A stretch of 64,000 nt of DNA, taken from the NCBI GenBank assembly GCA_031216635.1, contig CM062274.1:26356913-26420912 (forward strand), in the 5' to 3' direction. This DNA comes from Dissostichus eleginoides. Taxonomy: Eukaryota. The notes beneath the pieces were generated by a model. It did no database searches and was not told where the DNA came from. It saw nothing but the letters and a program-made list of their open reading frames with translations. Below are positions 2,735 through 43,610 of this stretch, in pieces; position 1 is the stretch's first letter, and the number at the start of each line of letters is the position of its first letter. Both the position numbers and the translations under genes were made by a program.

Positions 2735-3056
2735 AAAGAGCACATATTTTTTTAATTTCATATTAGTAGGTTCATATGTGTATTGTGTGCTTCTACTGTG
2801 ACAATTGTACATGCTTTAATGCTTTATTTTGCTCATACTGCCTGTGCTGCAGCACCTCTTTTCACCCTCTGTCTGAAACCAGAGCCCATTCTGCTCTGAT
2901 TGGTTAGCTGGCCGGCTCTGTTGTGATTGGTCAAACACTTATAGATGTCCCGCCCCTTAGCCTATCACGTAGAATGTGTTGAAGTACTAGCCAATAGAAG
3001 CGCGAGTGCTACATACTGATGTCAAAACCGCTAAAAGCATAAAAGGACCGCTTTAA
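2735..3056 (-). mobile_element. MITE family A copy (about 320 bp, internally shortened), TTAA-flanked
   Basis: Reverse complement of the 3968-4382 copy. It shares the ctgattggttagctgg...gtgattggtcaa...ctattggctagcgctccaac core. The terminus gcataaaaggaccgct is followed by ttaa. The 5' boundary is approximate. Confidence 0.6.
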
Positions 3057-3967
3057 GAAGAATAAGGATACCACAAAGATAACTATTAAGGTCCCATTTC
3101 CCAAGTTGGGAAGTTGTTCTTCCGACTAGTGTGTTCATGAGCTTTAAGTTGTAACATGAAAAAAATGTGTTTGTTATGAAGTTATTATCTCGACGAGACA
3201 TGAATGCAGTACAAATCACAGATTATAATCCGCTTTAAAATTAAATGGGTTCTTTATTAGCCCGTGGTAAACGACTTTACCAAGTATAATCTAAATTGAC
3301 TCCAATAGCTTTTCTGTTATGCAGCTGAAAGAAAGACAGACAAACTGAGACAAGACAAGACCTTGGCAGAGGTAATAAATCAATATATTGACTGTTGAAG
3401 AGCTGTAAGATGTATTTAATTTGGATGGACAAACATTGATGTGTTTACATTTTCATCGTGACCAAGTTGACATGCTGGCAATAGCATCTAGCCCAAAGCA
3501 CCGGTGCTTTTTAAACATCTGGGTTAATCAAACACCCTTTTCTAATGGGGTTTCTTTTTTTAACGATCCACTTTTCAATACACAAAGAGAGATTGCATCA
3601 AGAAGGAATTAGAAGCTTGTCTCTCAGCTGTTATCTGTTCCTGCAACTGTAGTAACACTTTACTATGTAGCGCCTTTTATTTAAGTTTGCTGTGAGGTTT
3701 GATAAGCACATTTATTAAACCCATTAAGGAATTGTAATCTTAATGACCTCATTGCCTTTCCTCTAGCGCCAACCTTAAGACACAGGTTACTTTTTCAACC
3801 TCACTTTAGACCATTCAATCAATCAATCAGTCAATTAATCATTTATTAATGACCAGATGAAGGTCGGATGAATTTGCTTTTAGTGTAGCACGGGTAAGCT
3901 CAATATAGCAGTGTCAGTGTAATCAAACATAGACAGATAGCAACATAACAACAGAGACATGACTCAA

Positions 3968-4382
3968 AGGGGCCCTATTATGCTTTTGGGTTTTCCCCTT
4001 CCTGTAATGTTTCATATATGTGTGTGTATGTAAATGGTCTGCAAAGGCTTAAATCCCCAAAGAGGGAGTTTCTCTGGCCTTTATTTACTTTTGTAAGATA
4101 GTTTAGCGGTTTTGACATCACTATGTAAAACTCACGCTTCTATTGGCTAGCGCTCCAACATATTGTACATGATAAAAAGCGGTGGGACATCTATAAGTGG
4201 TTGACCAATCACAGCAGAATCAGAGCAGACGGGACTCTGGGTTCGGACAGAGGGTGAAAAGAGGTGCTGCAGCAAAGGCAGTTTGAGATATACTGTATAA
4301 AGACCTTTTTTAACATTAAAACATGTCACAGTAGAAGCACAAAATACAAATATGATCCTGACAATGAGCACAATATGTCCCT
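3968..4382 (+). mobile_element. MITE family A copy (about 415 bp), TIR AGGGGCCCTATTATGC...GGGACA, TCAA/TTAA flanks
   Basis: It starts tcaa|AGGGGCCCTATTATGCTTTTGG and ends ...ATATGTCCCT|ttaa. It is highly similar to the copies at 20172 and 21324 and to the inverted copy at 2735-3056. Confidence 0.75.
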
Positions 4383-5213
4383 TTAAACAGCAAACATTAT
4401 TAAGAGATTGCCACAAGACTAAATATTGTATTATTTCGAAATATTCAGACTGAATGATAGGCGTTATTTTTCCAGCGTTGTTTCCTCAAACAATAAAGTA
4501 TCTTTGGATTGGCAAACATGAATACTTGAGGTAGACAGGGTTGCGTTAGCTTTTTGCATAAAACATGACTCCTGCTCCAAATGTGTGCTCTCTGTAATAA
4601 CTCAAATGTGTGTTGTGACTGTCCCACAGCTTGTAAATTGTGCATCTGTTTTATCACCCCGCTGAGACGGCTGCAAATTTACAAGACGATGGGACTTGTG
4701 AGAGGAGGACTATCTCCCTCTGTAGGGTCTGTTTCCTATCGGTCCCTCAGGAAGCCATTACCGTGAACTAGCTCTGTTTATAGGGAGAGAGTCTAGATAT
4801 GAAGGTGGCTGAGTTTGCTGGGTACAACCACACGGAAATATTGTTTGTCTGGTCTCCAAAGATAAAGACACCGTTTTTCAAATGTACTCCTCTGAGGAGC
4901 ACCTTGCATGACATTGTCTGACTTCATAACTGCCGAGGATAACTCGGAATATGAAGATTAAGTAAAGTTAAACAAAGAAATCAAAGCTGTGTATACCAGC
5001 GACGTGCAGTCAGGGGAGGCAGGGGAGGCAGAGCCTCACCTGTCATACTCCAAAGTAACGGAAAAACAACTAAAGAAAAACTAAATAGTAATAATAATAA
5101 AATGTCTCCACTGATCTGTGTTGTAAGTGTGATTTATGTATGATTCCAATCGCTTTTTATTGTCAAGATCAGCAAATTTGCCGAGCTCCGCTACAACTAC
5201 GGGGAGCGATGAG

Positions 5214-6037: not shown

Positions 6038-6043
<6 letters not shown>

Positions 6044-6070: not shown

Positions 6071-9000
6071 TACAGTACAGATTAAATAATAGCCTCAATT
6101 TGCTTTTAAAAGGAATTGTACATCATGATAACTCCACTTCAGTGAATAACAATTAAACTGACATATTGTCTCGTTGTGAAGTTAAACCACTGTTTCAGTC
6201 AACAAAGAGCTAACAGTCTGACTGCCTGTTCCCATCAGCCATTGCAGCTCTGCACCGCCGTTCTTCTTCTCAGTGGTCTTCTTGTCAGAGTTAGTTGGCA
6301 ATATGACTGGCTTTGTTTGCTCATTATGTAAAAACTAGACAGCCATTACAGTAAAAACAGGCTTCTTTTAAGCGCTCTCAACTACATTAAATAAATAAGT
6401 GAGAGATTAGGTGTTTAACCACAAGGGCTTAATTTAGCCCTGCAAATTGTAGCTGTCATTATTTTTTTTAGCCTTTGAACTTTCTAACTTGTTAGAACAT
6501 AAATGCTATTTAAAGATCGAGTCGTACATGTCTTTAACACTGAACAAAGCACATAATGAACTAAAAACCAACCAAGCTAAATAAGCTTTTTCATTTTCCA
6601 CCGCAATTAAGCATTGGAATAAACACACTTTTCGAAACCTTTAGACACTCAAGCATTTAGATACTACCTGAGCAACCATATAAAGTAGTTTAACAGGCAC
6701 TTGCCATTAAACTTCTAGCCAATAGCCAAAACCTTTCTTTTAAAACACTTATTGCACCCAATTCTTCAAATGGTTGCATATTAGTTAGCAGTGTTCCCTT
6801 AACATTAAGACATTATTTGGTTGAAATTAACGGACCCAGCCTGTGCGACGACAGGTATCAAACAGTGAAGATGGAAAGCCACTGCAAATACAAAAAAACA
6901 CAAAACCAAAACAAAGTGTTTAAAAATGTATGGCAATATTTCAATATATCTCGCAACATCATACTCACTTTATTTGAATTAGTTGCATCTATAAAAAGCT
7001 CCTCTTACTTCCTTCATGCACTGTTGGTTAATAGTGTCCATCTATAGCAAACACAAAATGTAAAAAGTTGAACCTGAAGCACAGGATGTTTGCTGGTTAC
7101 ATCGAACAATCTGAGAAGCCTTATCTAGACATTGTCTAAAAAAAAGGGCAATCACTTTCAAAAAATGCTTCGCAGGTGATTGAATTATCACAGTTAGTCA
7201 CCAGTGAACTCTAATCAATAAGATACATGACCAAAACTCAAAGAAAAGTAACACCCACCATCACAATTTGTTTATGCTCGAAATTCGCCGAGTGCAGTTG
7301 TGGGAGGGATAACATTAGAAAATGACATTCTCTTTTATGTTTGCTTTAAACAACTTTCAAATGTTAGTATACATGTAGTTTAATTAACAGAGGAGCCTTT
7401 GATACAGAAGGGACCAACATGAGAGTTTGTGAGATGTGCAGCAGCTTCCTCCCCGCTGACCAGCTCTCCAGAGATGTGCGCCTCCTTCGGGAAACGCTGG
7501 CTGCTGCTAGTCCTCTCTCTCTATTCTCCATACTGTCACAAGCATCTGGTTTCTCTTTCATTTAGTATAGGAGACGAGCAAGTGAAAAGACAAAATAATT
7601 GCTTCTTAGGGTTTTTTAAATGTTGGCTTTGCATTGTTTGATCTTGAAAGATGTGAAAGACATGGGTCACTACTGAATCAAGATTTGGAAATGACCAATG
7701 TCACACAAAAGTGACTTTGAAATCTAATCGAACTTTAACATGCATAGCGCCTTTACACTGACAAATCCAAAGAATTGAAGTAAAACGAACAACAATTGTA
7801 CTGAATCCAAACATTCATTTATGTATAATGCAAAACTCCCTTGCAGTACTTATTCAAAACATGTCATGAGTTATTTATTTAGTGCAGTGTTTCAGACCAG
7901 CTGTTGTTTCTGGATGAACTTGGAGTTGGAACAACATTTTGAGCAGTGCTAACATTTAGGGTCAGGAACTCATCCCACAGCGGGGTGAGTGCGGTGAAGC
8001 AAAAGCAGAATTCATTGTGATTGCTACACAAAAGTTAAGGTTTGTTAAGGTCTTAGAGTCTTAAAAAATAAAGTTGTTGTCCAGAGTCGACACATCCTTT
8101 CAATCAAGCTGGGCATGACCTGGGATAAGCTCATCTTTTTCGAAAAATCTTACACAGGATAAACAAGGTGGAAAATATGTTCACTCCCCTTTGAAGAGTA
8201 GGAGAGACTATTATAGATAGTAAGTTCTGGAAAAATGATAATTATGATAGATCTATATGTGTCACACTTCTTTTGGTGTGATCATATTGTTCACAAAGAA
8301 ATACCGACAGATCTGCGGTCATACCAGCTTTGATGCTATTTTCTACAATACCTGCATGTTAATAATTCCTTTGGATGACAGATGGCATTCATCACTTTTG
8401 TGGGATTGTGTGAACCATTTTTCTGAAATAGAAAGGTAACACCAAAGGTCCACAGTAGTGCTTGTTCATCATTAGAAATTCAATCTGGTATTTTCAAGTG
8501 AAGAGCCTGCAGTTTGTGAAGAGAGGATCATCAGTAAAGCACGGTAAGCTGTCGGTGTTTATCTAAAGACAGTGCACTGTGCAACGTTTCAGATCAATGT
8601 GCCTTAGTGGTGTGAATATGATGAAGGGAAGGTCATCACGAACAAATCTGACTATTCTGAATTGTAGATACAACGTGAAAAAAAATGACCTTCGAGAGGG
8701 ATCTCTGCTAATGCTTCCATTGAAACCCTCTGACGTGCTCCTGCATTGTCTCATCCTCCTCTCTCAGCCTTGCTAATAACATTATGACTAAATATTTTCC
8801 CTTTTTTTTGACAATAACATGGATGGATGTGAAGGTCATTTATCATAGTGGTGACTGCCTAATGCTATCAGCTCCCGTGGCAGGTTTTAATCATCCTCTT
8901 TAGGATAAAGCTGGTGGTATATTATCCAATACTGCACATCTTGCAGAGTAGGAAATGTTATTAAAAAGTTGCAAAGCTTGTAGATTGTGAGGCTTGCTAA

Positions 9001-10496
9001 CTGCAGAGGAGCTCTCGGTTTCAATCTCAAAGTGCTGCATGTCTAAGAGTACAATGAGAACGGTGTATCATCAGAGATGAAACTCCAATAACCTCCAAAA
9101 CCAGCCAAGGTAGCGAGCTCATGTATCAGAGCACACCTAGCCTGAGCCAGACACTTAAAGTTAAATTACCTGTGCAAGAAAAAAAAAGTAATATCATTTT
9201 AGCAAGAAACAGCAATCTTATCGTCCTGGTGTACTGCGAGGCACATCTTGCTGAAACAGTAGTGTAATTGCAGTGTTTGCTTTGAGTCATTCACTAGGGT
9301 GAAGGTGTTTTTCACTCTGAAATGCATTGTCTGAGCCAGTGGGACTACAGGACTAATTCAAGAGTGCTTCATGTGATTTCTTATAATTGGCTCATAAAAG
9401 AGAACAAATCAGAAATCCCTCGTGTCTCATAAACAAAATACGTTAAAGCCAATCTTCGAAGGATTTCAACGGTTATATTCTTGTGTTTTGTTCAACAGTT
9501 TGGTGCCATTTAGGTTTCTATTTTAGGTATTCAAACATAACTATGCTGTCCCAATTGTAAAAACACAGCGCCCTTAAGAGTCAGAGAAAGTGTTACCTCA
9601 TCATGTAGTGTGAGGTAGAAACAAAAGGCTATTTTAATATATAAAATTACATTTGAAAACAGATGGATGGAAACAAGTTTAACAGAAAACTTTTGGGAAC
9701 CTTTTTTCAGCTTGAGCACAAACAGTGACAATTTAAATGTGCGGTTTTGGTAATTTCCTGGCTCCTAACACGACTGCTTGGGCCGGTGGGAGGGGGTAAC
9801 TCATGTTGTGTTTATGCAGAACAGGTGGCACAGTTTGACTTCGGTACACATTTTGGCAAGAAGTTACAATTGTGTTTCCACCTGTCATGAGTAACAAAAA
9901 AGGCTTAAAAGTGTCCAAGAAACACAAGTTAAAGACATGTTGTGGTTGGTTGCTAACAACCCAGGGTCAAACACATAGTGTAGCATTTTCTCTCTTCGTA
10001 GCCAAATAGATGAAGAACTGGTTTGCATTTATGCAGTGCTTTTATCCAAAGCCGAACACTCACACCCAAAACAAACATCTATCAGGAGCCATTTTTGAGC
10101 CACAGCCACCTTAAACAAGAATAATAGCAAGATAATATTAGCTTGAAGCACCTTATATAAGAGATTAATTAAAGAAAGCACAGGAGAGCAAAATTATTTA
10201 AATATCATCGAATATTGAAGGGATCATATGCATAACAGGGCTCGCAAATTAAGATGAAGTGGCATGAATGTACCATTATTGCTAACAGCATCAAAACAAA
10301 ACAGTTATCTTCTCTGAAATACAGTAGGAGACAGAGGCGTGCTCACATTTGCTGCGAACACAACTCTGAAACTGCATGTGTTCACATACATGACTCAGGA
10401 AAAGATAATGAGGTTTTGAAAAAAAAAGTACATGGACATCAGAGCTGTGAAATCACCCACTTTGCAATCATTTACTACTTTATATATAACGTACGC

Positions 10497-10530
10497 AATG
10501 AAGGGCCTAATCCTAATCTTAACCCTAAAC
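10497..10530. repeat. Degenerate telomere-like (CCTAAT/CCCTAA) run
   Basis: cctaatcctaatcttaaccctaaac. Confidence 0.6.
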
Positions 10531-10741
10531 TTTTTTTTCATCATCTTAACTTTTTCAAAAAGACGTTTATAAAACAATAATTTTGCTGTTTGTTTGTCTG
10601 CATTGATGTAAATGTCAATATGTAACAATCTTGTTGCCTGGATGATGTTAAATGCCAGTGGAGGAAGACCTATGTTTTTTGCATAGTGCCAGCTGAATGA
10701 GGTGGATGCTTGACAAAGCTTTAGATGCTTACATACCTTAA

Positions 10742-10796
10742 AGGGGCCCTATTATGCTTATTTATTTATTTTTATAATTATGGCATAATAGAGCCT
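10742..10796. mobile_element. MITE family A remnant consisting only of the two TIRs (about 55 bp), TTAA-flanked
   Basis: ttaa|GGGGCCCTATTATGC..GCATAATAGAGCCTC|ttaa. The TIR pair matches family A. Confidence 0.55.
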
Positions 10797-13178
10797 CTTA
10801 AACACTAGTTTTGCTGCCCTGTCTGTAGGTCCCATGGAGGAACTTGATTCAGCATTGGTGGTGTGCCCTGTTCATTTCTATGGAAGTTAGTTGAGCATTA
10901 AGTGAAAATTACTCTTGTGAACAAAAATACCCTGATTATCTGGTGATCTCACAAACATTGTAGTTTCACCGTTTGGACACTTAAAAATGTGCCTCAATTC
11001 CTGGGGGTTTGGTTTGTTCCAAAGGTTCATCCCAATGTCCTCCTCGACTCCTCTATCCTTGATTTTGACTCTGAAATCGATGGACACAGGAGACAGAGAG
11101 AGGGAAACGAGGAGGCCAAATAAGGTTCTCTGATTAACCTCGACTCTATTTCACCCTTGACCAGACCCACTGTCAATGATAGGTGTGATTGAACTTGTAA
11201 CCACACCCAACATCAGGACACATGTACGTCACTGCAGCAAGAGAAAATCAATGGAGATAAACAACAACACGATTATCAGGGCGTCTTCAGGGACTATTTA
11301 ACTCGAACAAATGCTTCGAGCACAAAAACGATTACATATAAAACCGTAATAATGCTTTCGTTGCTGTGAGCAAATATAGTGACTCAACATTTTATGATAC
11401 TTTCTAAGAGTTAGTTGGAATTACTGCTTCTCCATCTATCTATGCTGTTTGGATTTTAATTAGTTTGGGGACCCTAATTTGTCATGTATTCAGTATTGAT
11501 TATAATGTGCCAGACTCCTAAATGATAGTTAGGATTAATATTTACATGTGTCCTCAGGCTCAATGTTAAATCTGTGAATTCAGCTTTCCCTGAATGAGAC
11601 ACTAAGCTCCCTCAAAGGCACCATTTGTGAGGGGCGGTTTTTCCGATTGAATCTCACACAGTAATTGGCAATTTGTGCCACTCTTCCATACCACCACAAG
11701 TTATCTTACAATGTATTTTCATTGTAAAGGATGTGGTGTTATGTACTACCTCCCAGACTTATACACACTTATTGAAGACATACACTTATAGTGTTTCCCT
11801 AAAAAGCCACACTGTAATTCTCAGCAGCTATGGGCTACATCTATCAATTGTAGAAATTGCTGTAAATGAGTTTTATTCTGCGGTACTGTGGGGAACTTTA
11901 TGAAGAGAAAGTGAAAAACATTTATTTTTCCATCGATGACCTTTTACTGCTCAATGACTCTGCATAAATAGTTTTAAAGCAGTTAGACAATTTAGAGCCA
12001 CTAAAAATATCTACCAGTAAACAGATCCAAACTGTGTGAAATACGGGAAAAGAAATTGCCTTGGAAATAAATCATTGCTTTGCATGCCAGAGAAATATGA
12101 CTAGCAGAGTCCTGCCAGTTCTCCTGCTGCAAGCATCAATCTCAGGTTGGGGGAGATTGAGATGAGACTGTGGAATTTTAAAATGTAGCTGGATGAGATA
12201 ATCACACATTTGGAGATTGCTCTTTTTTCAAGAGGCTCCAAAGCTGCTTGAGGAGGGCTCTGCAATCCGCTATCATGCAAAGCTTTTAGAGATACATTTT
12301 CATGTTCCTGGTTTTGAAAAAAATACCGGAAATACTGAATTTTACCCGGAGTTTAAGAAAACTCTGGTCTGAAGCATGATGTTGCAATAACTGCTAAGCA
12401 GATTGTTAGTTAATTTGCTGTTTACACAAGAAGCTGAAACTTTACAACCTTTTTGTTGGCTCCAGAAACTGATCAGAAACTCACCTTTACCACATCTTTG
12501 GTTCACAACAAGATATATACGAAAACTACCAGCCAGATTTCCATGAGATCTGCAGTGAGTTGTTGTTACCTCGAGAATGAACCCTGATGATTTTGGTTAC
12601 TTCCTGATCTTTCTTCAGTTGCACCATCTGGCGAAAATGTGTAAACACAACAAAGATGTAAATGTGTGCTTCACATTCATGCTGCCAGGAGAATTAAACC
12701 TTTCCATTTCTATTTTTTTTTCTAAACTCGCTTTCCTCTGGTGCCAAACTCAGGAAACGTTGCACACAAGAAGGCTCATAATGCACACAGCAACAGCTGA
12801 GCAAATTCATGTTCTCACGCGAATAGACTATTTTGATTTGGTCTACTGTTGCCATAATGAAAAATGTTATATTTCCAGATCTGGTAATAAGAAATAACTT
12901 TTCAACACTCAAATTATAAGGTGACCAAAATGGACTTACATTATTTCAAAATATTGGTCACTTGTATCCACTCAATTTGTAATATTTGATTTTCAGAACT
13001 CATTTGAGAGGTCTCAGTACAAAGGATTTACAGTTTGCACATGTTTTTTATTATTTGACAAACTTGTCTTGAAAAGTTTAGGGTTGTATTGCTTGAACTA
13101 AATTGAGACACTTCAGTTTCTCTTGGAAGCTTTGCTACAATTTCCAGAGGCATTTTCAGGACATGCACACATCACAAC

Positions 13179-13353
13179 ATGACTACAGCCAGAAAAAACA
13201 AAGGATTGAGGAAGGCTAGAGATCATGGGGAGTTCAATATTATTTGGACACAGCAAAACTTTCTGCTGACGAAACACAGTTTTGGATTTACTGCGAAAAC
13301 GTCCCCTCCTGTCAGTGGCAATATAGACGCTACAATGTGGGAAGACAATCCAG
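13179..13353 (+). CDS. Candidate 5' coding exon (ATG ... CAG|GTAAGT donor), unknown product
   Basis: An ATG at 13179 opens a 58-codon frame that ends exactly at a consensus splice donor caggtaagt (13351-13359). I recognise no homolog. Confidence 0.2.
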
Positions 13354-13395
13354 GTAAGTAGGAAGAAGTGAAAAGTTCATCAAGGTTGAACGAAA

Positions 13396-13399
<4 letters not shown>

Positions 13400-13429
<30 letters not shown>
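13400..13429. repeat. (TA)n microsatellite
   Basis: Direct reading. Confidence 0.9.
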
Positions 13430-13433
<4 letters not shown>

Positions 13434-13929
13434 ATCATAAATGAGTTACTCCTTAAAGGAACTCCTTTAGTAATCAGTTTCTTTGTGATGCTGCTTTGTG
13501 CAGCCTCCACTGATGGTCAGGTGTGATTGTTGCCATTCATCATTTTCCTCCTGCTTGAGCCTGAGCCACATTCATCACTTCCCACCTGCCTGGCTCGAGC
13601 CGGGTCTGCAGGACCACAAAGCCTGAGTGGGAAACAGAAAATCACAGTGATTGAGCGTCAAGGGAAGCAGATGTCAAACTGGTGTTGGCCTGGAATGACA
13701 CACAGGACCCTCGCTTTTCCCCTGTCACTTTAAACTGGTAAGTGACCTTCAAAACAGAAACGCTGTGCTGTCACAGTCTGATGCTGCATGCTGACGGATG
13801 AGTGGTGAGGTACTGAGGCCTTCAGAAAGCACTCAGATCATTAAGGTGTGACCACAGACGGCAATATTGTGATGCTGTCTCAAGACTATAAAGGCCTCGA
13901 TGAATTTATGACGTAATAAACCCTGTCGA

Positions 13930-14770
13930 CCAGGGATACTCAAAACTGTCATTATAATTGTAATCGGTCATAAATAAAATAAAAACAATTGAGACTACTA
14001 TGTTGTGCATTCTGATGCAATGAATGTTGTATGATCACCTTTTCTTATAATGAAATATAGGTATTCATATACATTTTTAGTGTGATCTTGCACAAGCAGG
14101 TGTGAAACAGGACAGACAGATGTTGTACGTATGTTGCAAGTGTGTCATATATTCAAACATGCCTGACTGTGATCAGAGGAATGTGTGAGAAAAGGGTGAT
14201 GAAAGTACAGGTGCACACAATACGTATATGATATGACATTTCTGATGGCAATTTAGATTTTCTCAAAAATGTCCTTACAGTGTAATTGAAAACTGTCATA
14301 AATGTAAATAATACAATTGAAACCACTATCATGAATGGTGATGCAAATATCGTTGCATAATCATCTATTCTAATAATTTATAATATGTATAAATATTTTT
14401 AATTGCGACATAGTAGAAACTGTTGCAAATAAGACCAATAATAATGTAAAACAAATGTGTTTTATGCCAGGTAGGTTTTAACATATAAGCAGGTTAATAT
14501 GTTGCTGGAGCTGACATTTACATAAGAAGAAGAAAATAAGAGCAAATATTGAAGAAATACGAATGTAATGAAAAAATATAAGTTTAGAGATTTGAAAATG
14601 ATACATATTTTCTCTTGTTTTTGTTCATGGAAATATTTAAAATGTTTGAGTGTATGTATAAAAATATATTGTATAAGTGTGTCATATTATTTTCACACAT
14701 AATATTCAAACATGCTTGACTGTGATCAGAGGATTGTTCACTGATGTCGGAGGAAAGGTAGATGACTTAC
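13930..14770. repeat. Local tandem duplication, about 360-bp unit, about 2.3 copies, diverged
   Basis: aaaactgtcat(t)ataa(t)tgtaa...caattga(g/a)ac(t/c)actat...gatgcaa...tgt recurs at about 13940 and 14285. attcaaacatgc(c/t)tgactgtgatcagagga recurs at 14150 and 14700. Confidence 0.5.
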
Positions 14771-14879
14771 ATCTTTTTGCTGCTGCTTTTAATTGAACTA
14801 TTCATATTCATATCGTATTTTTTCTTTTAATGTTTATTTGATTATCTTTGCTTTTTAATGACTGTTTTTAAATGCCATT

Positions 14880-14962
14880 TTCATAATGTCTTTCATTTTT
14901 GTAAAGCATTTTGAAATGCCTTGTGTTGAAAGGTGCTATATAAATAAACTTGCCTTGCCTTG
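14880..14962 (+). repeat. Teleost LINE/SINE 3'-tail fragment (tgtaaagc..tttga..aaaggtgctatataaataaa)
   Basis: The tail motif is shared with 18590-18665, 27296-27385 (rc) and 52085-52150 (rc). Confidence 0.6.
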
Positions 14963-17900
14963 CCTTACATTTAAATTCCTAGGTGCACACATACACCAAT
15001 TACAGATGTACGATATAGCATTTCTGATCAAAACAATGGGGCTTCGGTGCTGCCTGGGAGGAAGTCTGCAGAGGAGGATTTGTGTCTCCTTATTTCTCTT
15101 ATCTTTCTCTCCTGGGTGTCGTTGATTTCGGCCGCCCCCACGCCTTGGCAGAGGAGCAGATGTACTGCAGGTCACCTCCGTCTCCTCACATTGGGATGGC
15201 CCCCAGACCCTCTGGGAGCCAGCCTGTCCATTAGGAGAGAGTTATTACATGGTTGTTATTTTTCTCTTTCATTCTGGGTTTTCTTTTGATAAGGAGTTCT
15301 ATATCAAATGAAATACAACAGTTCTTTGCTTTTGACATGCTATCTCGCTGAGGAAAATAGAAGACAGTCAATGCAACCTGGCTCGGCAGCTATAACTCTC
15401 AAAATCTTGTGATCAAAGAGAAGAGATAAGATCAAAGATATTCACTGTGATGGATTCTTCTCATCTGAGGATTATTTCAAGCATCTGCACTGTAGCAGAC
15501 GAGAGGGGCAGCTGTTTTTGGAAAATCCACAGTAAAATCGGCACTAATTCTAGTTAAGTAAAGCCAACGGAGAACGCAGCAAGGCACAAAATATTAAAAA
15601 CAAGCTTTATCTTACAAACAGCTTGGCATCCTTCCTGGATTTCCCCTTCATCATAATATTCACAAAGCGAATGGTTTGAAAAGGCATATTTATTTAGGAA
15701 CAACGTCTGAGGAGAAAGTTTTTACTATCTCATGGAAGCAACCCCGTCTCCTAGAAATTATGTTTATTCATTAATAATTTGTTTTCCCAAATACATTTTT
15801 GAATGAAAACATAATTGGTGTCTGGATTTGGTTCAGTGGAAATAACTTTTCTATTAAAAGACGTGCTATTTGTTTTTCTCACACACACAAGGCATGCAAA
15901 GCAGGAGTTTGACCTTGAAGACAGACACACATGTTCGGTTTGTGTGTGTGTCGATATTCATTCAAGTGTCTTTAGTGCCTGAATATAACCATTAAAATGT
16001 GAATCATGCCATTATTTTGTATGGCGAATTATAAAAATATAAGTGATCATTTCCAGATATGTTCGATTCGATCTTGGCTGATGTTTTCATTTCAGAATCA
16101 GAATACCTTTATTGGTCCTACAGAGGGGAAATGTACATTTGTTACAGCAAGTAGAGAGCCAAAGCTTAGTGCCACTCAAGAAGCATGCATATACATATAA
16201 ATAAGATAAATAACACAATTAAAAAAATACCCATCCATTACCAGTAACAGTTTAGCACTATAGCAGCCATGCAGTATTAAAGGTTGAAGTATGTATATAT
16301 ATATTAAACCATCTTTTAATTCATGTATTTGTTCCACTTATTGTACATAAAAAAAACACCTGTACACTTTGAAACTTTTATTTTACCTGCCCCTTACTCA
16401 AGAGTAGCTGGTCTGTCGTCACAGCTGCCAGTTACTTAACAAACTCACAGAAGCTAAAATATATTAAACATTTTAAAACATATTAAGACAAAACAATTCT
16501 ATATATTTTCTGGTAATAATAATAATAATAATAATACATGACACTTATATAGGGCTTTTCTAAAAACTCAAAGACGCTTAATACTCTGTTTTTGATCTGC
16601 ACACAACTGTTAGTCTATAATTCAATTAAATATTTTAGTTTAACCGCCCTGAATCCATAAACAGTGTAATTGTGTGTAATTGTGGACGTTCATTATGAAT
16701 AATTCTCACTGACATTTTCTGTAAAATAAATAAAAGATTTAAGTTACTCCTATTTGGTTCGCCCCACACAATCATTTAAATATGGCAAAATCAACAGTAC
16801 ACAATTTGCATTGAACTGTAGTCCAGCACAAACGTTGCCTTGTTCTGAAATATGTTAATAAAAATAGATTTAATTGGAGTGACTCAGTATCTAAAAAATT
16901 TGATTTCAAGAACATATGGTTCAATAAAAGAGGTATAAAAGAGCCATATCAGTATATAACTGGAACATAAAATAAGCAAAAACCCCCGCTCATGAAAGAA
17001 TCATACTTCAATTTGTTCCTCTAACCACCAGCCGCAGCCGACCTCAGCCCTTTGTCTGACGCACATCACACGCCTCGTCTCGTTAGCCGGAGATATTTAA
17101 AGAAATACCTAAATCTGCTGTCACTGTCCAATTAAATCAAAGCCCGTAAGTGGGATGTGTGACCCGTGCGAAATGAGAAGAAAAAGCAATTTTGCCAGAT
17201 CCTTGACATCATTTATTGAAGCCCCATGACCACTGCCCTACATTTAATTGTTTCATTCATGTTTATGAATCAGACGAACGTGATTTTGAGTCTTATTCTG
17301 CACGGTAATTTGCAGCTGCGCACATTCCCCACTGTGATGACCTCTCTCTGTTGTTGTGTTATCATGTCACTTGTAATGTGATATGGCTATATGCCCCACT
17401 GTCACTGATCTCCAGCCCTTCAGAATAATGATGATGATATATGGCTGTTTGTGCGGTGGGGTCCTCTGAAACCTGTGAACTGTGCTCCTCCATCTCTGTC
17501 CATCTTCTTGTTATTTAACAGCACCTCAGAGAGATTGCCTGCCTGTTAGACGACAGGTCGCCGCTGTGATCTGAAGAACAGATTGCACGATATTTGTTCT
17601 CCGGAAATGAGGGAAACTGAAAGACCCTTTTTTCACAGCAGGCATGTCGACTTAACATAGCGGGAAAAGCACAGGTGTTACTAATAACGTTAACCAGGGC
17701 TCTCAATGTCCTAGAAAAGCATGAAAGAGAGCCAGAATGCACAATATGCCAAACAGCTGAAGAGAATTCAGCCATCTTTTGTTTTGTAAAGATTGTATTT
17801 TATGTATTGATGTTCAATTTGAATTGCAATTTGTCATACGGTAAATCAGCATAGACTAAAATATATGTTTTTATTGTGGTGGTTATGAATGAAAACGGTA

Positions 17901-18589
17901 AAATAATAAATATATACAAAATAAAAATGACTAGAAAAAGAAGCTATTTAATAAACCATCAAAGGAAAGATTACATCTCTATTAATTCCATTATTCACAC
18001 TCATGCTTATACTGTGACTTTGTAAAATAAAATAAAGAAATTGGATATTCCATCAATATCTGCACCAGTATGATACACATAGTGATACATAGCACAAACA
18101 AATAAATCTCACAAATCCCTTGGTTAAGGTGGTCATGTTTGACCTCCTCTTCAGCCACATTTCCACAGTATCCTCATTGTATCTATTTTCCTCCATCCAC
18201 CAGGTGCCCTCCTACTTTCCCTCGTTCCTCCATCACCTGACGGCACCCCCCATCTTCACACCTGTCCCCACTCGCCCTCATCAGCCCTGCAGTACAAATA
18301 CCAGCCCCATTTTCACCAGTCATTCTTCAGTTAATTAAGGTTGCCATGTGGCAGTTTTCAAGCCTACAGAACATGAATTAGGATCAGATTTTATTTGCAT
18401 TAAATGGATATTTGTCTTGGCAAATAAGACAAAATAAACCTTACTTGGTTTGATGGCTGCTCTCCGCACGATGACGTAGATGATGACATCGTTTTTATTG
18501 GCCTGGTCAGATGTTATGTTTCGCTGCATGTACATTCAAAGTTCTTGGCAGATGATCTGAGGGGAATTTCTTGATGTTTGTTTTTAACT

Positions 18590-18672
18590 TTTGTTGTGAT
18601 TTTGTAAAGCGCTTTGAGCTGCATGTGATGTGTGAAAAGTGCTATATAAATAAACCTTTATTATTATTATTA
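18590..18672 (+). repeat. Teleost LINE/SINE 3'-tail fragment followed by (TTA)n
   Basis: ttgtaaagcgctttgagctgcatgtgatgtgtgaaaagtgctatataaataaacctttattattattatt. Confidence 0.6.
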
Positions 18673-20160: not shown

Positions 20161-20171
20161 AAGCCCTTCAA

Positions 20172-27227: not shown

Positions 27228-27290
27228 GCAGGTCTGATTGGTTAGCTGGCGGCTCTGTTGTGATTGGTCAACAGCTTAGAGAAGCCCCTT
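27228..27290 (-). mobile_element. MITE family A internal fragment
   Basis: ctgattggttagctggcggctctgttgtgattggtcaacagctta matches the core of 2890-2945. Confidence 0.5.
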
Positions 27291-27295
27291 CAGTT

Positions 27296-31689: not shown

Positions 31690-34179
31690 CGAACCATTGA
31701 TTCTGGATGTATTTTTAACAAGGTAGAAGTATTTCCTTTGAGATGGCTGTTGAAATTGAGACCTTAGTCTGTAGGGAAGCAGAGAGACATGTCGGCTTCA
31801 TTTCACATGTTGGCTGGGAGCTTCTCAGACATCAGCGACACATCAGCCTCCGACCTCCCTTCGGGTCGTCACTGTCCTGAGAGCCAGCGGTCCTGTCAGC
31901 GACACAGCTCCTGGGAGGACAGCAGGCGGATAAATTGTCCAAACTTTTTACCAACCTGACAGTTATCAGAAACTCCAAGGTGGAAAATAGTCAAAGACAG
32001 CTCGATGATGAGTGTAGTGGAAGAAAATGTCACTTCCTGCACCCAGCAGAGCTCGACACCAACATTTCAAAAAGCAATGTCACTTAAAATCTAAAACAAA
32101 ATTCTTAAATGTCAAATCATTAAAACATAATGTATTAGGGTGCCAGTACAGCGTAGAAATAAAGACTGTCATGTGTAATTGCTGCATTTGGATAGCCTTT
32201 GGTAAAATAAAATCCTGCTAAGATCCTGTATATTGCATAAATTATAACTGTACACTATCAGCGATACATGGGAAGAATAACAAAGCACACAAATCATTGA
32301 TGAAAAGATTAGAGGCAATTGCAGATAATAATAATAATAATAATAATACATTTAATTTCAAAGCGTTTTTTCAGGTGCTCAAAGACGGTGGTGATAAAAC
32401 GAGATAAAATAGAATAAAAATATTAAAACAGCAACACAACATAATTCACAAATTCAAAGCCAATCTGAAGAGGTGTGTTTTGGTCAGTGTTTTGAAAGTG
32501 GGGGGGTCGGTGCAGTCTCTGATGGGTGGGGGCAGCGATGGAGAAGGCTCTGTCCCCCCAGGTTCGGAGCTTGGTTCGTGTGGGGATAGAGAGGAGATTC
32601 GCTTCTGATGAACGAAGGCTGCGGGAAGGGGTGTAGTGGTGGATCAGGTCGGTACAGATACTGTATATTTATCTCATGTTGACCATCTTTAATTTAGTTT
32701 TTAACCTCTTATAAATGTGCTCATTTCACTACCAATTGTTGGCTGTATAGAGACTTTTAGTGTGTGGTTTTTTATTTTACTCTGAGAATACTTTTATCCA
32801 GGACTAAAAAGAGGCATTAGAACTCCTTTTTCTTTTCCATATGGTAGTTATAGAAGTTCAATCAATGTCCTTTCATCTATCGAGCTGAAAGCTGTTCAAA
32901 GGCCGGCCTAGCAGAGCATATGAGAGCATGTGTTCCAGAAAGACAAAGGCTGTCAAATGAATGGCAGCAGAGGCACGGGGAACCGAAACAAAAAGGGAAA
33001 TCATTTATAAGCTATTATTATAATGACACGGTTTGATGTCCTTTGTACTTTGTATGTAGTTCCTTATCATTGCTTTAGAAAGGTCTCTTTTATTAAAATA
33101 AGCTACATCATGAAATCAGAATCAGAAATACTTTAATTATCCTGGGGGAAATTGGGTTTCATGACAGTTGTTCCATTTTAGAGTAAAACGGAAAAAAAAA
33201 GATGAAATAACGTTTTTTTTGAATGTAAACATAAGGAATAAAAATGTGCACATTAAAATATATAAATATAGGATTTTAAAGGACATGTCCAATAAAAAAA
33301 GAATAAAATATAATATAGAATACAAATAAAATAGAAATAATAAAATATGACAAACTCAATATTTGACAGAAAGAATAAAATATGACAAACTAAAAATATT
33401 ATCAAAGAATAAAATATCATATAAAGTACAATTAAAATAATTAAATATTATATAAATGAAAAATAAATGAAAAATAATATAATATTACATAAACTTAAAA
33501 TAAAATAATGTAAAAAAATATGATATTATATAAACATACAAAGTTAAGTGCCAGCACATGACTCATGTGTACACTTTTATCCTCAACCAGCTCTGTTTGA
33601 ATGATATAACACTGCTATTTTTAAGAGTTTTATGGGATGTGAGTGTTCTGAACTAAGTGGTTTAAATGCTTCATCTGTCATTCATACCATCAGGTTCCTC
33701 CCCCTCTTTTAACTCCTAAGTACTCTCAATATAACCCAGCGACTATAAGAGTCCTGTACTGCAACAAAGTCCACAGACGCTTGTTGAAATCTCATCGACA
33801 CCTGCGCTTTGCTGAGCATTCACCCTGGATCCGGGCCCTTATCTTTGTTCCCAAACCTCTCTCACAAACAAGTCCTGTTGACTTAGTGTCATCCTCTAAA
33901 GACACTGAGGTCTTTAAGTGCTCACACTTTAGAGTAAACAAGAAAAATATACAAAAACAACTCTGAACTTTTGGTGGTTTTCTGCTGAGAGCTGTTGGTT
34001 GTTTACTCTGAGAAATAAACGGCTGCCTTTATGAGACACTGTTATCCCCTTGTTTTTTACAAAAGGCTTCTCGTTTACCAATACACACACACACACACAC
34101 ACAGATGTAATACTTTTGTAAATGTAGCTATACTACATTTTAAAATACTTTCTTAAAAGGAAAAGTTTTGCATTTAAAA

Positions 34180-35879: not shown

Positions 35880-36200
35880 TTTATTCACAGCCTTTTCCTC
35901 TGCATAGAGACGTTGAATTGAAAGAAGAAAGTATCAAATCAAGTTTGTTCTGTTTTGGTTGAAATTGAGTTCAATTCTCATAAAGATCTCTGACTCCCAT
36001 TGTGCTTTTTGTACGCTCCTATTAAAGCTATTTGTCAGTGTTGCTTGAAACTACGCACACAACACATTCAAAATTGGACACCCTTTTTGATTTCCGCGCA
36101 GCACAAAAACAAACCCCCCGTAGTGCATTAACATCTACGAGTGTGAAGAATGCAAACAAACAGGTGTGGGAGAAGAGTGTGAAGTTGTATTCAAATAATA
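35880..36200 (+). repeat. Unclassified interspersed repeat (family D), copy 1
   Basis: It matches the reverse complement of 40770-40960 plus 41340-41410 (cttcacactcgtagatgttaatg..ggggtttgtttttgtgc..cacaatgggagtcagagatct..caaacttgatttgatactttcttctttcaattcaacgtctc). Confidence 0.65.
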
Positions 36201-36914
36201 TGAATCATTTAAAGATTTTCACACTTGGAAGGGAAGGCATCCAAATGTTCAGAAATATATAAAAAAAAGACAACTGGACATCTCTACTCTGCTGAAATGA
36301 ATAATAGATTTGCTGGCACATTCAGAGAGACTGGCACAGTGGTCTCCTTCTGTTAACTTCAACAATGTAAATGTGCCTATTCTCTTAAATTCACAAGCTC
36401 TAAAAGCCATTTATCGCACTGCAGAAGTGACTAGAATACTTTTTTATTGAAATGCACAACCTTCGTTTAGCACTAGCCGGCCTAATATTTCACATGGAGC
36501 CATGTAATGGGAGCAAAGTGAAGGGCAAAGTGTTCCCAAAGGCCTCTAGGTCAAGTTAACTTTCCGACGTGTTGACATTTTGCACTAATGAAAATGTAGC
36601 CTGTCAGGAACTGTTTCAAGGGTAGAGGTTTATGTCCGGTTCCCGTGAAGGAATCCCAGGAATAATAAAGGTTCATTTATAATTAAGGACTTCACTACTG
36701 CAATATAATTTGCTCAAATGACTGGGAAGCATTGGAAGCAGCAGGGTGGGTGAACTCGAATAACCCCTTTACTACCGATACAAATCATCACTTAGTTTGG
36801 TAAAAGGCTGTTAATATTATTCCTATAAAAACCAATGAAATAAAGGCAAGCTATGGATTATTCTAACAACTATCGTAGCCTAAGATATCTTCTTCTTCTG
36901 TGCCACATCTGCAA

Positions 36915-36982
36915 CCATCAGAGCAGACTGGGCTCTGGTTTCAGAAAGAAAAGAAGATGAACATGAGCATAATAAGGCCCTC
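36915..36982 (+). mobile_element. MITE family A 3' fragment
   Basis: cagagcagactgggctctggtttcagaaag...gagcataataaggccctc|taaa. Confidence 0.5.
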
Positions 36983-38650: not shown

Positions 38651-39400
38651 AGGGCCCATGTCATGGCCATTTCCACTGATCATAATTCCATTGTTGAGGT
38701 CTACTAAAATAGATTTATACAGATAGATTTTGTGCATTTTTCCAAACTCACATTGGTTTCGCATACAGCATCTCTGTAAAGTATGTGTATTCAGCAGTAT
38801 TCACTCTCTCCACTAAATGGCTCGTTGCAGCTCTTGCCCCCCCTCCCTGTGAGCACAGTGTGCTCTGATTGGTCGGGACGTTGTGAATCGCGCTGAGCTC
38901 CGTGGAGGTGTGGTTTCCTTGTTTAGCGATACACAGCGAAACACAGCCAAACTCATCCTGAGCACACACAAACTCACAGCCGAAGTAAAAACAATAAGTG
39001 TGGCTTGATATTGAGTAAGAAAAAGGTTGATAAACGCTGTGAGAATGGGTCTGCAGAGAGAATTTCGCCGCGATCCCAACTGTCTGTTATCAGCCTGCAG
39101 CCAGGGATGAGAAATCAGCAGAGCTGGACGTAACGTAACGGCTCCACGGATTGGTCCATTTGGTTCCGGGTACGAGCTGACGTCAGCTCGTACCCGGAAC
39201 CAAACGGACCCATCCGTGGAGCAAAGAAAGAAACTGAGAAATCTCCAACGAGGCGTTTTGGGGAGGAATTTCCTATGTTAGAGTTGTACTCGCTACAGGG
39301 TGTACTTTGAGGGTTTGTGACTCTGCAGACCGTTTACATGCATAAAAACCTACATAACACACAAGGTGACGGGTAACCGGAAAAGCATGACATGGGACCT
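38651..39400 (-). mobile_element. Intact MITE family B copy (750 bp) with TTAA TSD
   Basis: ttaa|AGGGCCCATGTCATGG ... CATGACATGGGACCT|ttaa. It is collinear with the split copy at 22572 and 25901. It contains an 84-bp palindrome. Confidence 0.8.
39141..39224. repeat. 84-bp near-perfect palindrome centred on TGACGTCA inside MITE-B
   Basis: gctccacggattggtccatttggttccgggtacgagctgacgtcagctcgtacccggaaccaaacggacccatccgtggagc. The inner 46 bp are a perfect reverse complement. Confidence 0.85.
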
Positions 39401-40769: not shown

Positions 40770-41410
40770 ATTAAATATTCTTCACACTCGTAGATGTTAA
40801 TGTACTACTGGGGGTTTGTTTTTGTGCGGAAATCGTAAAGGGTGTGTGGACCAATTTTGAGTTGTGTGCGTTCAGGGCCGTCCCTGGCAACACTGAAAAA
40901 TAGCTCTAATAGGAGTGTACACAAAGCACAATGGGAGTCAGAGATCTTGGACTCAATTTCATAATAATCAGGATACATGTATTTATCATCCTTGCAAGAA
41001 TGGAAGTAGTCATCACATACAGAGCATTTGGGACAACTAGTTCCTGAACAGTGTCCTTCACATGCTTTATATGCAAGAGAGTGTTACAGTCACAAGATGC
41101 AGAATACCAGTTCAAAGCAGTATTCTATGTTTAGTTTAGATTAGCTGAGGCCCACGTCAGAAATGATCATGCTTGTCATATGTCTATCTCCATAGAGGCT
41201 GAATCATCATGTTAATCACATAGCTGTCATATGCCTAAAATAGTCCTGACGCTCTTCTAGGTAATCATACATCCTGTTACGTACACAGCTACGTAGGGCC
41301 TTTGTTACCATGTGTACTCTGATATTAGAAGAGTACATTCAGTATTTTCCCAACAAGAACAAACTTGATTTGATACTTTCTTCTTTCAATTCAACGTCTC
41401 AATGTGTGAC
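40770..41410 (-). repeat. Unclassified interspersed repeat (family D), copy 2, about 370 bp longer than copy 1
   Basis: It is the inverted partner of 35880-36200. An extra block at 40960-41340 is absent from copy 1. Confidence 0.65.
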
Positions 41411-43492
41411 TTCAACTGAGGCCTTTCAGGCAAGGGGGAGTTTGTGGGAAAGAACTTCGAGATTTTAGCCACATGCACAAGATAAATAAAAAATGCACTA
41501 CAGCAAAGGAAAACCCCAAAAAGCTACCCTTTAAATGAGAATAAAGCCTGAATAAGAAAACATGGTTGAATGTCAGAATCTCTGTGAATAATGCGTAATT
41601 GGGGTTTTAATGAATATATTTCTTTTTTTAAACTGGTTTGTTAATCTAGTTTAACCCAAAAGAAGGGAACTGAGATGAACCAACATCAGTTTTAATGATC
41701 TGTTCTGTCAGAAAATACTAAAAAGATGAGAAATTATTTTCCCAAGAAGTAAAGGCTCCTCGAGTGACACTGAGCTTACCTCCTGCTTTCTCTCATCTAC
41801 TCTGTTAAAAAAAAAAATAGATGCATCCAAAATCAAGCCTTAGTTTTTTGTCTTGAAAGTGAGTCTTAGTTTGCATGTCCCTTGCCCTTTTTCTAGCCAT
41901 TTTCACTAAAAGGCGTCCATATTTTTACATCTATGTATTTCTGTTTTCTCCCTCAGGTCACCAGAGGATATTCACACACCCACATGCCGTTATTCATCAG
42001 CCGCTCTCTCAGTAACCTGTATGGATTACACCACAAGTAAACTGTGCATACATAGAGTTGTAACTCTTTAGTGTTGACCATATCAATACATACTTGAGCA
42101 AACAGAGGATGGAGTAAACATTTGAAATCTATTGGCAATTGTTTTAAGCATGCTCAATAATAACTTACCTTTACGCAATGGATTCCCTGCTGAGCACTTC
42201 CTTTGTTTTCATATTTAATTCCATCTTATTCACAGAATGGCAGCAGAATATGGGTATTGATAAAACTGCCCTTTATTACCTGCAGAAAAACAATTATTTG
42301 TAAATAATAGCACCATACATGTCTACATGGACTGTGGTTGAACTAGAAGATTATACATTTGGGTTTGAATCTCAAGGAAGCCACCAAGAAAGTTTGCCTA
42401 TAAGTGAAGTTAACAAAACCAATGGGTGATCTCAGACAATATTTAAATAGACAGGTAAGTTTACAAATAATTGTGTGCGCTGCTTATTTAAAATTAACCA
42501 AAAATAAAGTACAACAAAGGATACCACAAAATAGGCTCCCTTTAAAACCTTGCAAGTTTTTTATGTAATTCAGCTTTCAAGCACTCAGATATCAATTAAT
42601 TATTAAGCAGCTTTATTAAAATGGGACGAGCAGCCAAGGTCACTATCAGTACCTGGGCTCATATGCAAGGTCGTCCTCTTTCTACTTCAATCTTTATAAT
42701 ATTGATTTCAGAAATTCCTGTCTCAATGTATAAAATCCTATGAAAAAAGATCCAGGATATCCATAAAGACAGAGAAGTCTCTATGTAGTCGTTTACAAGA
42801 ATGTTCTCCAATTGTAAAACACCTCTCAGACAGAGATGTGCTGTGGTAGCTGGAGGTTTCGAATGATACAATAATATTGATAATAATAAGATAATAGGAC
42901 TATAAACAGACAGAGTAGTAGAGGAGCACAAACAGCCTGTTACCCACTCAGACTGCCCTCAGCGACCTCATGCACCCTGTCGCCACATTTCTGACAGCCA
43001 GTCCTCCCACAAGTTCAGTCCCCAGGATAACAAGAGGTGTTTGACTCCTTGGACTCCGCTCTCAGCCACAACACTGACGGGCTCCTAAAAACTCGAGCTG
43101 ACAGAAACATGAGGCAGGGTGGCGAGGGGAGAGGAGGGGGGGGGCTGTAATGTCATTTGCCTGGAGACTTGTCGGCTCCTCGCCGAATGCCCCTCAGTGT
43201 TCTTGAGGACAATCGGAAGCAACAAGCTTCTTTTAAACACACAGTGGAGTCGAAATGAAGCCTAAGAAAAATATATATATAAAATATATATATTGTTAAA
43301 ATGTTTTCTTTTGGGTTATTTCGTTTTTTTAATTCATGTGCATTGACTTTATGACATGCTTCTGTATCATAAAATGTTCGACTTTTTTAGGATCTAACCT
43401 AAGATCAGGATACAAATTTCCTAATATTACATAAAAAATATGTTATCAGATAGCTCTGACATTTTTTAAAATTGGGATAACTGGCACAATTA

Positions 43493-43610
43493 AAGGGGCC
43501 TCATTATGCTTGTTGGGGTCGAAACGCCCATATTGGACTCCTTTGTTTACTTCAGTATCATAGAGACATCACTATGTATGTGATGAAGCACACACTCCCT
43601 CACTAACATC
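43493..43610 (+). mobile_element. MITE family A 5' fragment
   Basis: ttaa|AGGGGCCTCATTATGCTTGTTGGGG..ttacttcagtatcatagagacatcactatg. Confidence 0.55.

Follow-up and report, generated by a model that had tools for sequence, protein, structure and literature searches.

Results

At least 13 copies or fragments from three TIR families lie in the 64-kb stretch of DNA analysed here (the window), where the initial annotation had counted at least 10. A search with a MITE-A profile found 11 separate pieces (copies A1 to A6 plus five fragments), and there are two copies of MITE-B and one of the THAP element, which we call C. An Rfam scan of the window gave no matches.

MITE-A is about 300–415 bp long. 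Its terminus, AGGGGCCCTATTATGC, matches the window 10 times at ≤3 mismatches, against 0.31 matches expected. Copy A2 (3968–4382, plus strand) is complete at 415 bp, with a right flank of TTAA and a left flank decayed to TCAA (profile E = 2.6e-104). A1 (2737–3052, minus strand, 316 bp) has its 5' region deleted, a right flank of TTAA and a left flank decayed to ACAA (E = 2.4e-82). A3 (20172–20556, plus strand) has TCAA on the left and a decayed right terminus, its end being approximate (E = 3.5e-110). A4 (21324–21626, plus strand), whose CCAAT core is internally deleted, has TTAA on both flanks and the TIRs AGAGGCCCTATT and AGGGGCCCTATA. The shortest is A5, a 57-bp mini-derivative at 10742–10798 made of two back-to-back TIRs, with TTAA on the left and TAAA on the right. 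A6 (43494–43578, plus strand) is a 5' fragment with a left flank of TTAA. One further copy on the minus strand (27232–28003) is in two pieces, 27232–27297 and 27852–28003, with unrelated DNA between them (E = 5e-11 and 1.9e-23). The remaining pieces are a 3' fragment at 36912–36982 (plus strand) that combines a CCAAT-block remnant with the terminus GCATAATAAGGCCCTC and a TAAA flank, an internal fragment at 44186–44314 (plus strand, E = 4.6e-11) and a weak MITE-A-like fragment at 41452–41524 (minus strand, E = 0.0037).

MITE-B is larger, about 750 bp, with a consensus start of AGGKC (AGGTC). Its terminus, AGGTCCCATGTCATGC, matches the window four times against 0.34 expected, and all four matches are flanked by TTAA. 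B1 (22572–25901, plus strand, in the A-family orientation) is a single element with TTAA at either end; a 2.6-kb LINE reverse-transcriptase fragment interrupts it at 22969–25537. B2 (38651–39400, minus strand) is a complete copy of 750 bp with TTAA on both flanks and the TIRs AGGGCCCATGTCATGG and AGGTCCCATGTCATGC. A 131-bp piece of MITE-B is 95% identical to Dissostichus mawsoni. Two scans of viral contigs returned no further MITE-B copies.

The A-family profile matches MITE-B collinearly at E = 1.7e-11 (in B2), 1.7e-10, 5e-5 and 4.5e-3. Together these matches cover some 100 bp of the 5' end as well as the CCAAT block and the 3' part. Some copies from outside the window are intermediate between the two families. 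A shared internal block, GACCAATCAGAGCASACTGGGCTC, was found five times at ≤3 mismatches (in A1, A3, B1, B2 and the fragment at 36912) against 0 expected. The initial annotation had proposed both the kinship and the common block, and the collinear matches make a stronger case than it did. The terminal motif that it also cited, AAAGG..CCC.AT..ATGCTTTT, has no match anywhere as written; what the termini really have in common is an ungapped identity of 17/22 over their 22 nt. MITE-A and MITE-B are thus genuine homologues, two subfamilies of one MITE lineage.

Element C (45752–46958, transposase gene on the minus strand) lies beyond the 2735–43610 interval in which the initial annotation had placed it. 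It is 1207 bp long, has TTAA on both sides and ends in a 14-bp perfect TIR, AGTGGTTGTGACAC, with exact inverted copies at 45752 and 46958. An open reading frame at 46298–46723 (minus strand) corresponds to the THAP-domain exon of a Kolobok transposase (Pfam THAP at 46424–46696, E = 1.7e-15; 68% identity to the icefish exon). On the opposite strand, what is left of KolX, the second Kolobok gene, is a 5' remnant of 70 aa at 46004–46204 (plus), with 79% identity to its icefish counterpart. Between these remnants, a deletion junction containing (CA)29 (46205–46307, no strand assigned) takes the place of some 6.1 kb present in the full-length element.

A protein search with the THAP sequence gave two matches, and these were the route to full-length relatives: a 7.3-kb element in Champsocephalus gunnari (locus L002, 9537–16786) and a 9.4-kb element in D. 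mawsoni (locus L017, 8122–17570). Each lies between TTAA flanks and has the TIR AGAGCCTGTGACA. Element C is 77–84% identical to both ends of these two elements, and Antarctic notothenioids, at about 82% identity, are its closest relatives. The full-length relatives carry the THAP exon (Pfam E = 1.4e-15). In tblastn, four collinear exons of L002 match the DDE cores of Kolobok-2_DR, Kolobok-1_XT and Kolobok-1_BF (E = 7e-18, 4e-15, 4e-10 and 4e-5), and searches of L017 and L018 gave similar results. D, D, DxxH and E are all conserved, within GGDGRADSPGH, VTDRH, YDIWH and VEGFHS. An opposite-strand P2RX7_C-like gene corresponds to KolX (P2RX7_C was recorded in L017 and was weak in L002), and transcription of both genes runs inward from the termini. 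The family of C is Kolobok, because its full-length relatives bear the Kolobok DDE core, THAP and KolX. These relatives show that C arose by internal deletion from a Kol0-type Kolobok with two genes. C retains both 14-bp TIRs, the THAP exon and the first KolX exon and has lost the DDE core with the missing 6.1 kb. When the window was searched with Kolobok DDE cores and the icefish proteins, the sole matches were C's remnants of THAP and KolX.

Exact TTAA adjoins 12/17 termini in the window and is present with ≤1 mismatch at 16/17, against a background of 0.83% per position. By family, it is exact at 4/4 B termini and 6/11 A termini. TTAA stands on both sides of A4, B1, B2 and C, as the initial annotation had claimed for at least one copy of each of the three families, and A2 can be added with its decayed left flank. 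We repeated the count outside the window with a pattern, AGRGGCCCTATTATGCTTTT, that leaves the flank unspecified. Run on the metagenome, it recovered 14 independent MITE-A copies, whose flanks are TTAA in eight, differ from it by one base in five and by two bases in one, which upholds the initial annotation's target site beyond the window (8/14 exact, 13/14 within one mismatch). The DNA further upstream is unrelated between copies. Two of the 14 are complete, and the right end of each adjoins TTAA. The flanks of A2 and of one outside copy (L011) looked similar, but the match was a low-complexity BLAST extension and was rejected. Read from the flanks of filled sites, MITE-A, MITE-B and element C all have a 4-bp TTAA duplication.

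Every terminus, in the window and in the outside copies, starts with AG, and all three families have 5'-RR...YY-3' ends. The initial annotation had given the start as AG(G/T)G; the AG holds throughout, but the restriction to G or T was too narrow, the MITE-A consensus being AGRGG with AGAGG the more frequent form (9/14 outside copies). The Xenopus T2 motif, TTAA followed by AGGRR, is present in the A copies that start with AGGGG (A2, A5, A6, the right end of A4 and 5/14 outside copies) and absent from the commoner AGAGG form and from MITE-B (AGGTC).

Discussion

We put a probability of about 0.8 on the reading that the window is teleost-type non-coding DNA strewn with non-autonomous elements, old and inactive, that belong to Kolobok, a superfamily of DDE cut-and-paste DNA transposons. 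Kolobok elements are defined by TTAA target-site duplications and 5'-RR...YY-3' termini, and piggyBac is set apart by its termini (PMC9587614). Xenopus T2-MITEs combine TTAA with terminal AGGRR, and each of the ten full-length Kolobok copies listed for Xenopus starts with AG (PMC6004289). The initial annotation's preference for Kolobok over piggyBac was right because these two combinations are the published signatures of Kolobok and of T2-MITEs, and it is upheld as well by the DDE core, THAP and KolX of C's relatives.

The closest parallel to C is the Kol0 lineage (Kolobok-1_XT, Kolobok-2_DR), for which the second gene, KolX, and the two-gene organization have been described (PMC9587614). Like Kol0 elements, the full-length relatives of C have TTAA duplications, AG termini, a THAP domain at the N-terminus and, in their second gene, the P2RX7 C-terminal ('ballast') domain; their DDE core is 44–57% identical to that of Kolobok-2_DR and includes the DxxH motif. 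The copy in the window differs in being a 1.2-kb deletion derivative that has lost the DDE core, along with most of KolX, and has (CA)n at the junction, its THAP frame remaining open. For A and B the parallel is the T2-MITE group of Xenopus (Xmix/T2-A1, T2-C; PMC6004289). Both are short, high-copy TIR elements with insertion at TTAA, AGG-type termini, no encoded transposase, long persistence and several subfamilies. The host is a frog in one case and a fish in the other, neither the A consensus (AGRGG) nor the B start (AGGTC) strictly fits AGGRR, and A and B have none of the Xstir-type tandem arrays found inside Xmix.

The initial annotation had traced all three families to one autonomous lineage, and this is unsupported, A and B having no detectable sequence in common with C. 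The A-family profile matched neither C nor any of six Kolobok loci. We rejected two candidate links as chance-level similarities in nhmmer and blastn: a 10-mer, GGTTTTCCCC (E = 8.6), which sits at a similar subterminal offset in A/B and C, and a 60-nt stretch of 66% identity (E = 0.3). By these comparisons A/B and C have only the superfamily-level signature, TTAA plus AG, in common. The search that the initial annotation recommended for an autonomous partner with A/B-type TIRs (AGRGGCCCTATTATGC or AGGTCCCATGTCATG termini) or subterminal sequence found none; it covered the window, 14 contigs from the metagenome and some 112 kb of sequence from the six Kolobok loci. Those loci, fetched through transposase homologues, come from C. 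gunnari, from D. mawsoni, from Pogonophryne (two loci) and from other organisms (three JGI contigs), and are a very small genome sample. With no partner found, the placement of A and B in the superfamily is therefore read only from the target-site duplication and the terminal signature.

The alternative that fares best is that A and B belong to another, perhaps undescribed, TTAA-targeting group that converged on AG termini, leaving the three families without a common superfamily. It would account for the missing homology of A and B to C and to every Kolobok locus examined, and a target-site duplication plus a two-base terminus is a thin signature. We nevertheless find it unlikely. The T2-MITEs of Xenopus, which are attributed to Kolobok, have exactly this signature, TTAA plus AGG..., and the MITE-A TIR is identical at 12/16 positions to a Xenopus Kolobok TIR (XKol-A5, AGGGGAACTATCATGA; PMC6004289). 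Other Kolobok termini that we recovered, AGTCCCACCGACAC in L019 and AGGACTAGTATCACC in L020, also read TTAA followed by AG.

Human MER75 and MER85, which are piggyBac-derived MITEs, resemble A and B in their TTAA duplication and short TIRs. In piggyBac, CCC...GGG ends directly adjoin the TTAA. A and B could be piggyBac-type MITEs moved by a piggyBac/PGBD transposase, with only C a Kolobok, and the failure to find a Kolobok partner for them in the sequences searched fits this idea. Against it, AG is the start of 31/31 A/B termini, none has the CCC...GGG form, and the homology between copies begins exactly at the terminal AG. Both superfamilies integrate specifically at TTAA (for piggyBac, PMC9587614 and PMC7351741), but the terminus separates them, Kolobok being 5'-RR, a distinction already drawn in PMC9587614. 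We regard a piggyBac origin as very improbable. A Tourist-like (PIF/Harbinger) origin for A and B, in which only three bases (TWA) would be duplicated and the fourth flank base would be a coincidence, is barely credible: TTAA does contain TAA and TTA, and A and B are short, AT-flanked MITEs, but the outermost flank base, T at position -4, is kept in 10/14 of the metagenome copies collected with the flank unspecified (p = 0.002), which favours a 4-bp over a 3-bp duplication, all four bases stand on both sides of A4, B1, B2 and the outside copy L009, and the two TIRs would be equal no longer, but one base apart, if the duplication were 3 bp.

Under the Kolobok reading, we infer a Kolobok transposase as the enzyme that mobilised A and B. 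Encoding no transposase of their own, the elements would have been moved in trans by a THAP-DDE enzyme that recognises AG-initiated TIRs and subterminal sequence and then excises the element; integration at TTAA would duplicate those four bases.

The clusters of CCAAT/ATTGG boxes that the initial annotation pointed out are real: the A/B sequence, 4.0 kb in all, has nine occurrences of RRCCAATSR, and the remaining 58.8 kb of the window has 13. The A consensus has three ancestral CCAAT boxes, two of the NF-Y-type form RRCCAATCA, and one B copy has an additional perfect CRE palindrome. As ancestral parts of the A/B consensus, the boxes may be relics of the promoter of the parent element, and from their motif content the predicted boxes may act as NF-Y promoter modules. 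A truncated P-element product acts as a repressor, and by analogy the intact THAP-only reading frame of C could encode a putative DNA-binding repressor of Kolobok transposition. The full proposal, that the A/B cores are inward promoter relics of a lost Kolobok parent spread as NF-Y/CREB modules and that, separately, the THAP-only frame of C is a repressor, seems to us fairly unlikely. If true, MITE amplification would have scattered ready-made NF-Y/CREB promoter modules through the fish genome, and some A/B copies may now serve as promoters or enhancers. [quoted passage not shown]

The repeats described here are real but ordinary, because TTAA-inserting elements of the Kolobok type are already well described in fish and frogs. 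Their significance is mostly one of annotation: they should be masked and labelled as non-autonomous Kolobok elements and not as piggyBac, and they offer a worked example of how an AG start next to TTAA tells the two apart in a fish genome. The THAP-bearing 1.2-kb relic is now tied to a two-gene parent of 7–9 kb in Antarctic fishes.

Copies of the Three Families in the Window

The window has a GC content of about 38%, holds no long host reading frames and gave no matches in an Rfam search; in character it resembles intergenic or intronic DNA of a teleost. Copies were delimited by self-BLAST, sequence reading and profile search. All three terminal motifs quoted in the initial annotation were found, at counts far exceeding chance: the MITE-A terminus AGGGGCCCTATTATGC matched 10 times at up to 3 mismatches (0.31 expected), the MITE-B terminus AGGTCCCATGTCATGC matched 4 times (0.34 expected), and the terminus of the THAP-bearing element C, AGTGGTTGTGACAC, occurs at 45752 and again, as an exact inverted copy, at 46958.

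MITE-A is represented by copies at 2737–3052 (minus strand), 3968–4382 (plus), 20172–~20556 (plus) and, with its core deleted, 21324–21626 (plus), by a 57-bp mini-copy with a double TIR at 10742–10798, and by fragments at 27232–28003, 36912–36982, 41452–41524 (weak), 43494–43578 and 44186–44314. MITE-B has one complete copy of 750 bp, B2 (38651–39400), and a second, B1 (22572–25901), that is split by a 2.6-kb LINE fragment. This non-LTR retrotransposon fragment (22969–25537) carries a reverse-transcriptase reading frame that contains the motif FADDT and matches Pfam RVT_1. Divergence between copies is 12–35%, and these insertions are old and inactive. The three families had been placed between 2735 and 43610; the copies are real, but element C (45752–46958) lies just outside that range.

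TTAA Target Site

Exact TTAA adjoins 12 of the 17 identifiable termini in the window, with the right end of A2 taken as 4382, and at most one mismatch is seen in 16 of the 17. The TTAA background is 0.83% of window positions. Since the window copies had been picked by eye, we ran a flank-blind test in which the metagenome collection was scanned with AGRGGCCCTATTATGCTTTT, a pattern without flank bases. This gave copies on 14 independent contigs, which belong to the MITE-A family (65–88% identity in profile and BLAST comparisons). Rather than the variable or non-TTAA flanks that would speak against the proposed TTAA insertion, their four upstream bases were TTAA in eight cases, one mismatch away from it in five and CTAC in one; sequence farther upstream was unrelated among the 14. 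The right end was TTAA in both of the two complete copies. The T conserved at position −4 (10/14, p = 0.002) argues against a Harbinger-type duplication of 3 bp (TWA).

Probable Assignment to Kolobok

Kolobok elements make TTAA duplications and, unlike piggyBac, have 5′-RR and YY-3′ termini (PMC9587614). Xenopus T2-MITEs, which are presumed to be non-autonomous Kolobok elements, target TTAA and have a terminal AGGRR, and the full-length Xenopus Kolobok copies in Table 5 of that study have an AG start and TTAA flanks in 10 of 10 cases (PMC6004289). Two further Kolobok termini, which we recovered upstream of THAP exons, both read TTAA followed directly by AG. The published signature, the Xenopus termini and these further termini therefore bear out the initial annotation's guess of Kolobok over piggyBac, and relatives of element C carry Kolobok DDE cores. 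MITE-A and the Xenopus Kolobok TIR AGGGGAACTATCATGA (PMC6004289) agree at 12 of 16 positions. On the target-site duplication and terminus signature alone, we would put the probability that MITE-A and MITE-B are members of Kolobok at roughly 0.8.

Element C and Its Full-Length Relatives

Element C encodes a complete THAP domain on its minus strand (Pfam E = 1.7e-15). Used as a protein query, this reading frame led to a locus in the icefish Champsocephalus gunnari (L002), where each end of a 7,250-bp element (9537–16786) aligns with one half of C, at 77% and 82%. That element is bounded by TTAA followed by AGAGCCTGTGACAC on one side and by GTGTCACAGGCTCT followed by TTAA on the other. A second full-length copy, 9.4 kb long and TTAA-flanked, is present in Dissostichus mawsoni. 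Between their ends, these relatives have the THAP exon; they also contain four collinear exons matching the DDE cores of Kolobok-2_DR, Kolobok-1_XT and Kolobok-1_BF (whose reference sequences come from PMC9587614, Data S5), with the catalytic D, D, E and the DxxH signature kept, and an opposite-strand gene with a P2RX7 C-terminal domain. The Kol0 lineage of Kolobok has two genes, a transposase and KolX with a P2X7 “ballast” fold, and the layout of the relatives of C is exactly alike (PMC9587614). Compared with full length, element C is missing about 6.1 kb, has a (CA)29 tract at the junction and retains a KolX remnant of 70 codons. It is a Kolobok deletion derivative. Its THAP exon (46298–46723, minus strand) is still open and has kept the C2CH, P, W, F and AVPTLF residues; in principle, it could yield a THAP-only protein.

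At a Pogonophryne albipinna locus (L018), a diverged Kolobok copy is bracketed by an inverted duplication (6826–9056 and 17775–20000) whose arms are at least 2.2 kb long and 97–100% identical; no TTAA-flanked TIR pair was recoverable at this copy. Two Kolobok transposase fragments of Dissostichus eleginoides, P0004 and P0005, bear the public names “Carbonic anhydrase 1” and “50S ribosomal protein L24”, which are evidently wrong.

Kinship of MITE-A and MITE-B

A 24-nt block, GACCAATCAGAGCASACTGGGCTC, is common to A1, A3, B1, B2 and one fragment (0 expected), and the region past it is also alignable between A and B, with order kept. The first 95 bp of A2 are 67% identical to the end of B, and the 22-nt termini of the two families have 17/22 ungapped identities. 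A profile HMM derived from seven copies of MITE-A matched the 5′ 100 bp of both B copies (E = 1.7e-11 and 1.7e-10) and their block region (E = 5e-5 and 4.5e-3). Some of the metagenome copies fall between A and B; MITE-B has about 430 bp of additional internal sequence. The shared block, collinear alignments, profile matches and intermediates show MITE-A and MITE-B to be subfamilies of one MITE lineage. The initial annotation had linked them through a shared block, which stands within a homology wider than claimed, and through a terminal motif string that, as written, matches nowhere.

It had also derived all three families from one autonomous lineage. The A profile matched neither element C nor any fetched Kolobok locus, so that at ranks below the superfamily nothing supports such descent. 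Searches of the window, the metagenome contigs and the fetched Kolobok loci turned up no autonomous element with ends of the A/B type (AGRGGCCCTATTATGC or AGGTCCCATGTCATG).

Other Repeats and Cross-Genome Matches

A large inverted duplication (47963–48525 and 51352–51938) has arms of about 560 bp that are 84–97% identical and 2.8–3.9 kb apart, with a 34-bp tandem unit at its outer right end (51867–51939). It lacks TTAA flanks, encloses no long reading frame and may represent a further transposon family, one with long TIRs. A second inverted-repeat pair (35903–36151 and 40777–41404, 82–96% identical) encloses about 4.6 kb in which B2 and a fragment of MITE-A lie; TTAA does not flank the ends of this pair.

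An internal 131-bp piece of MITE-B (38996–39126) is 95% identical to positions 2836–2966 of a Dissostichus mawsoni locus (L017), far closer than the other cross-genome matches in this analysis. The locus has no B termini, and rearranged B-like CCAAT motifs adjoin it; the piece may be a conserved or captured module, or else the match may reflect close kinship between the source of the window and the toothfish.

The minisatellite at 56302–56656 (30-bp unit, 11.8 copies, 91% identity) accounts for long but spurious reading frames on either strand. Unclassified dispersed repeats of 78–84% identity pair 14756–14961 with 52084–52297, 33116–33209 with 56746–56836, and 54999–55119 with 747–869 of L015. 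L015 is a metagenome contig that also bears MITE-A, so its metagenome holds DNA of a related fish.

CCAAT Boxes and a Possible Regulatory Role

The MITE-A consensus has three ancestral CCAAT boxes (CTATTGGCTAG, TGACCAATCAC and AACCAATCAGAG). The density of RRCCAATSR in A and B is about 10 times that in the rest of the window, the copies being non-independent samples. The NF-Y-type promoter modules proposed in the initial annotation would lie in these CCAAT-rich cores. An 82-nt near-perfect palindrome in B2 (39141–39222) is centered on a consensus cAMP-response element, GCTGACGTCAGC, with ATTGG/CCAAA boxes on its flanks; the exact element is absent from B1.

Kolobok-type TTAA elements are an already described phenomenon, and these families are probably in repeat libraries already. 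Xenopus provides a precedent, with Kolobok MITEs located close to promoters and in open chromatin (PMC12676858). Because transcription of both genes in the full-length relatives runs from the termini inward, we infer, and only infer, that a promoter origin of the subterminal and core sequence in a derived MITE is plausible.
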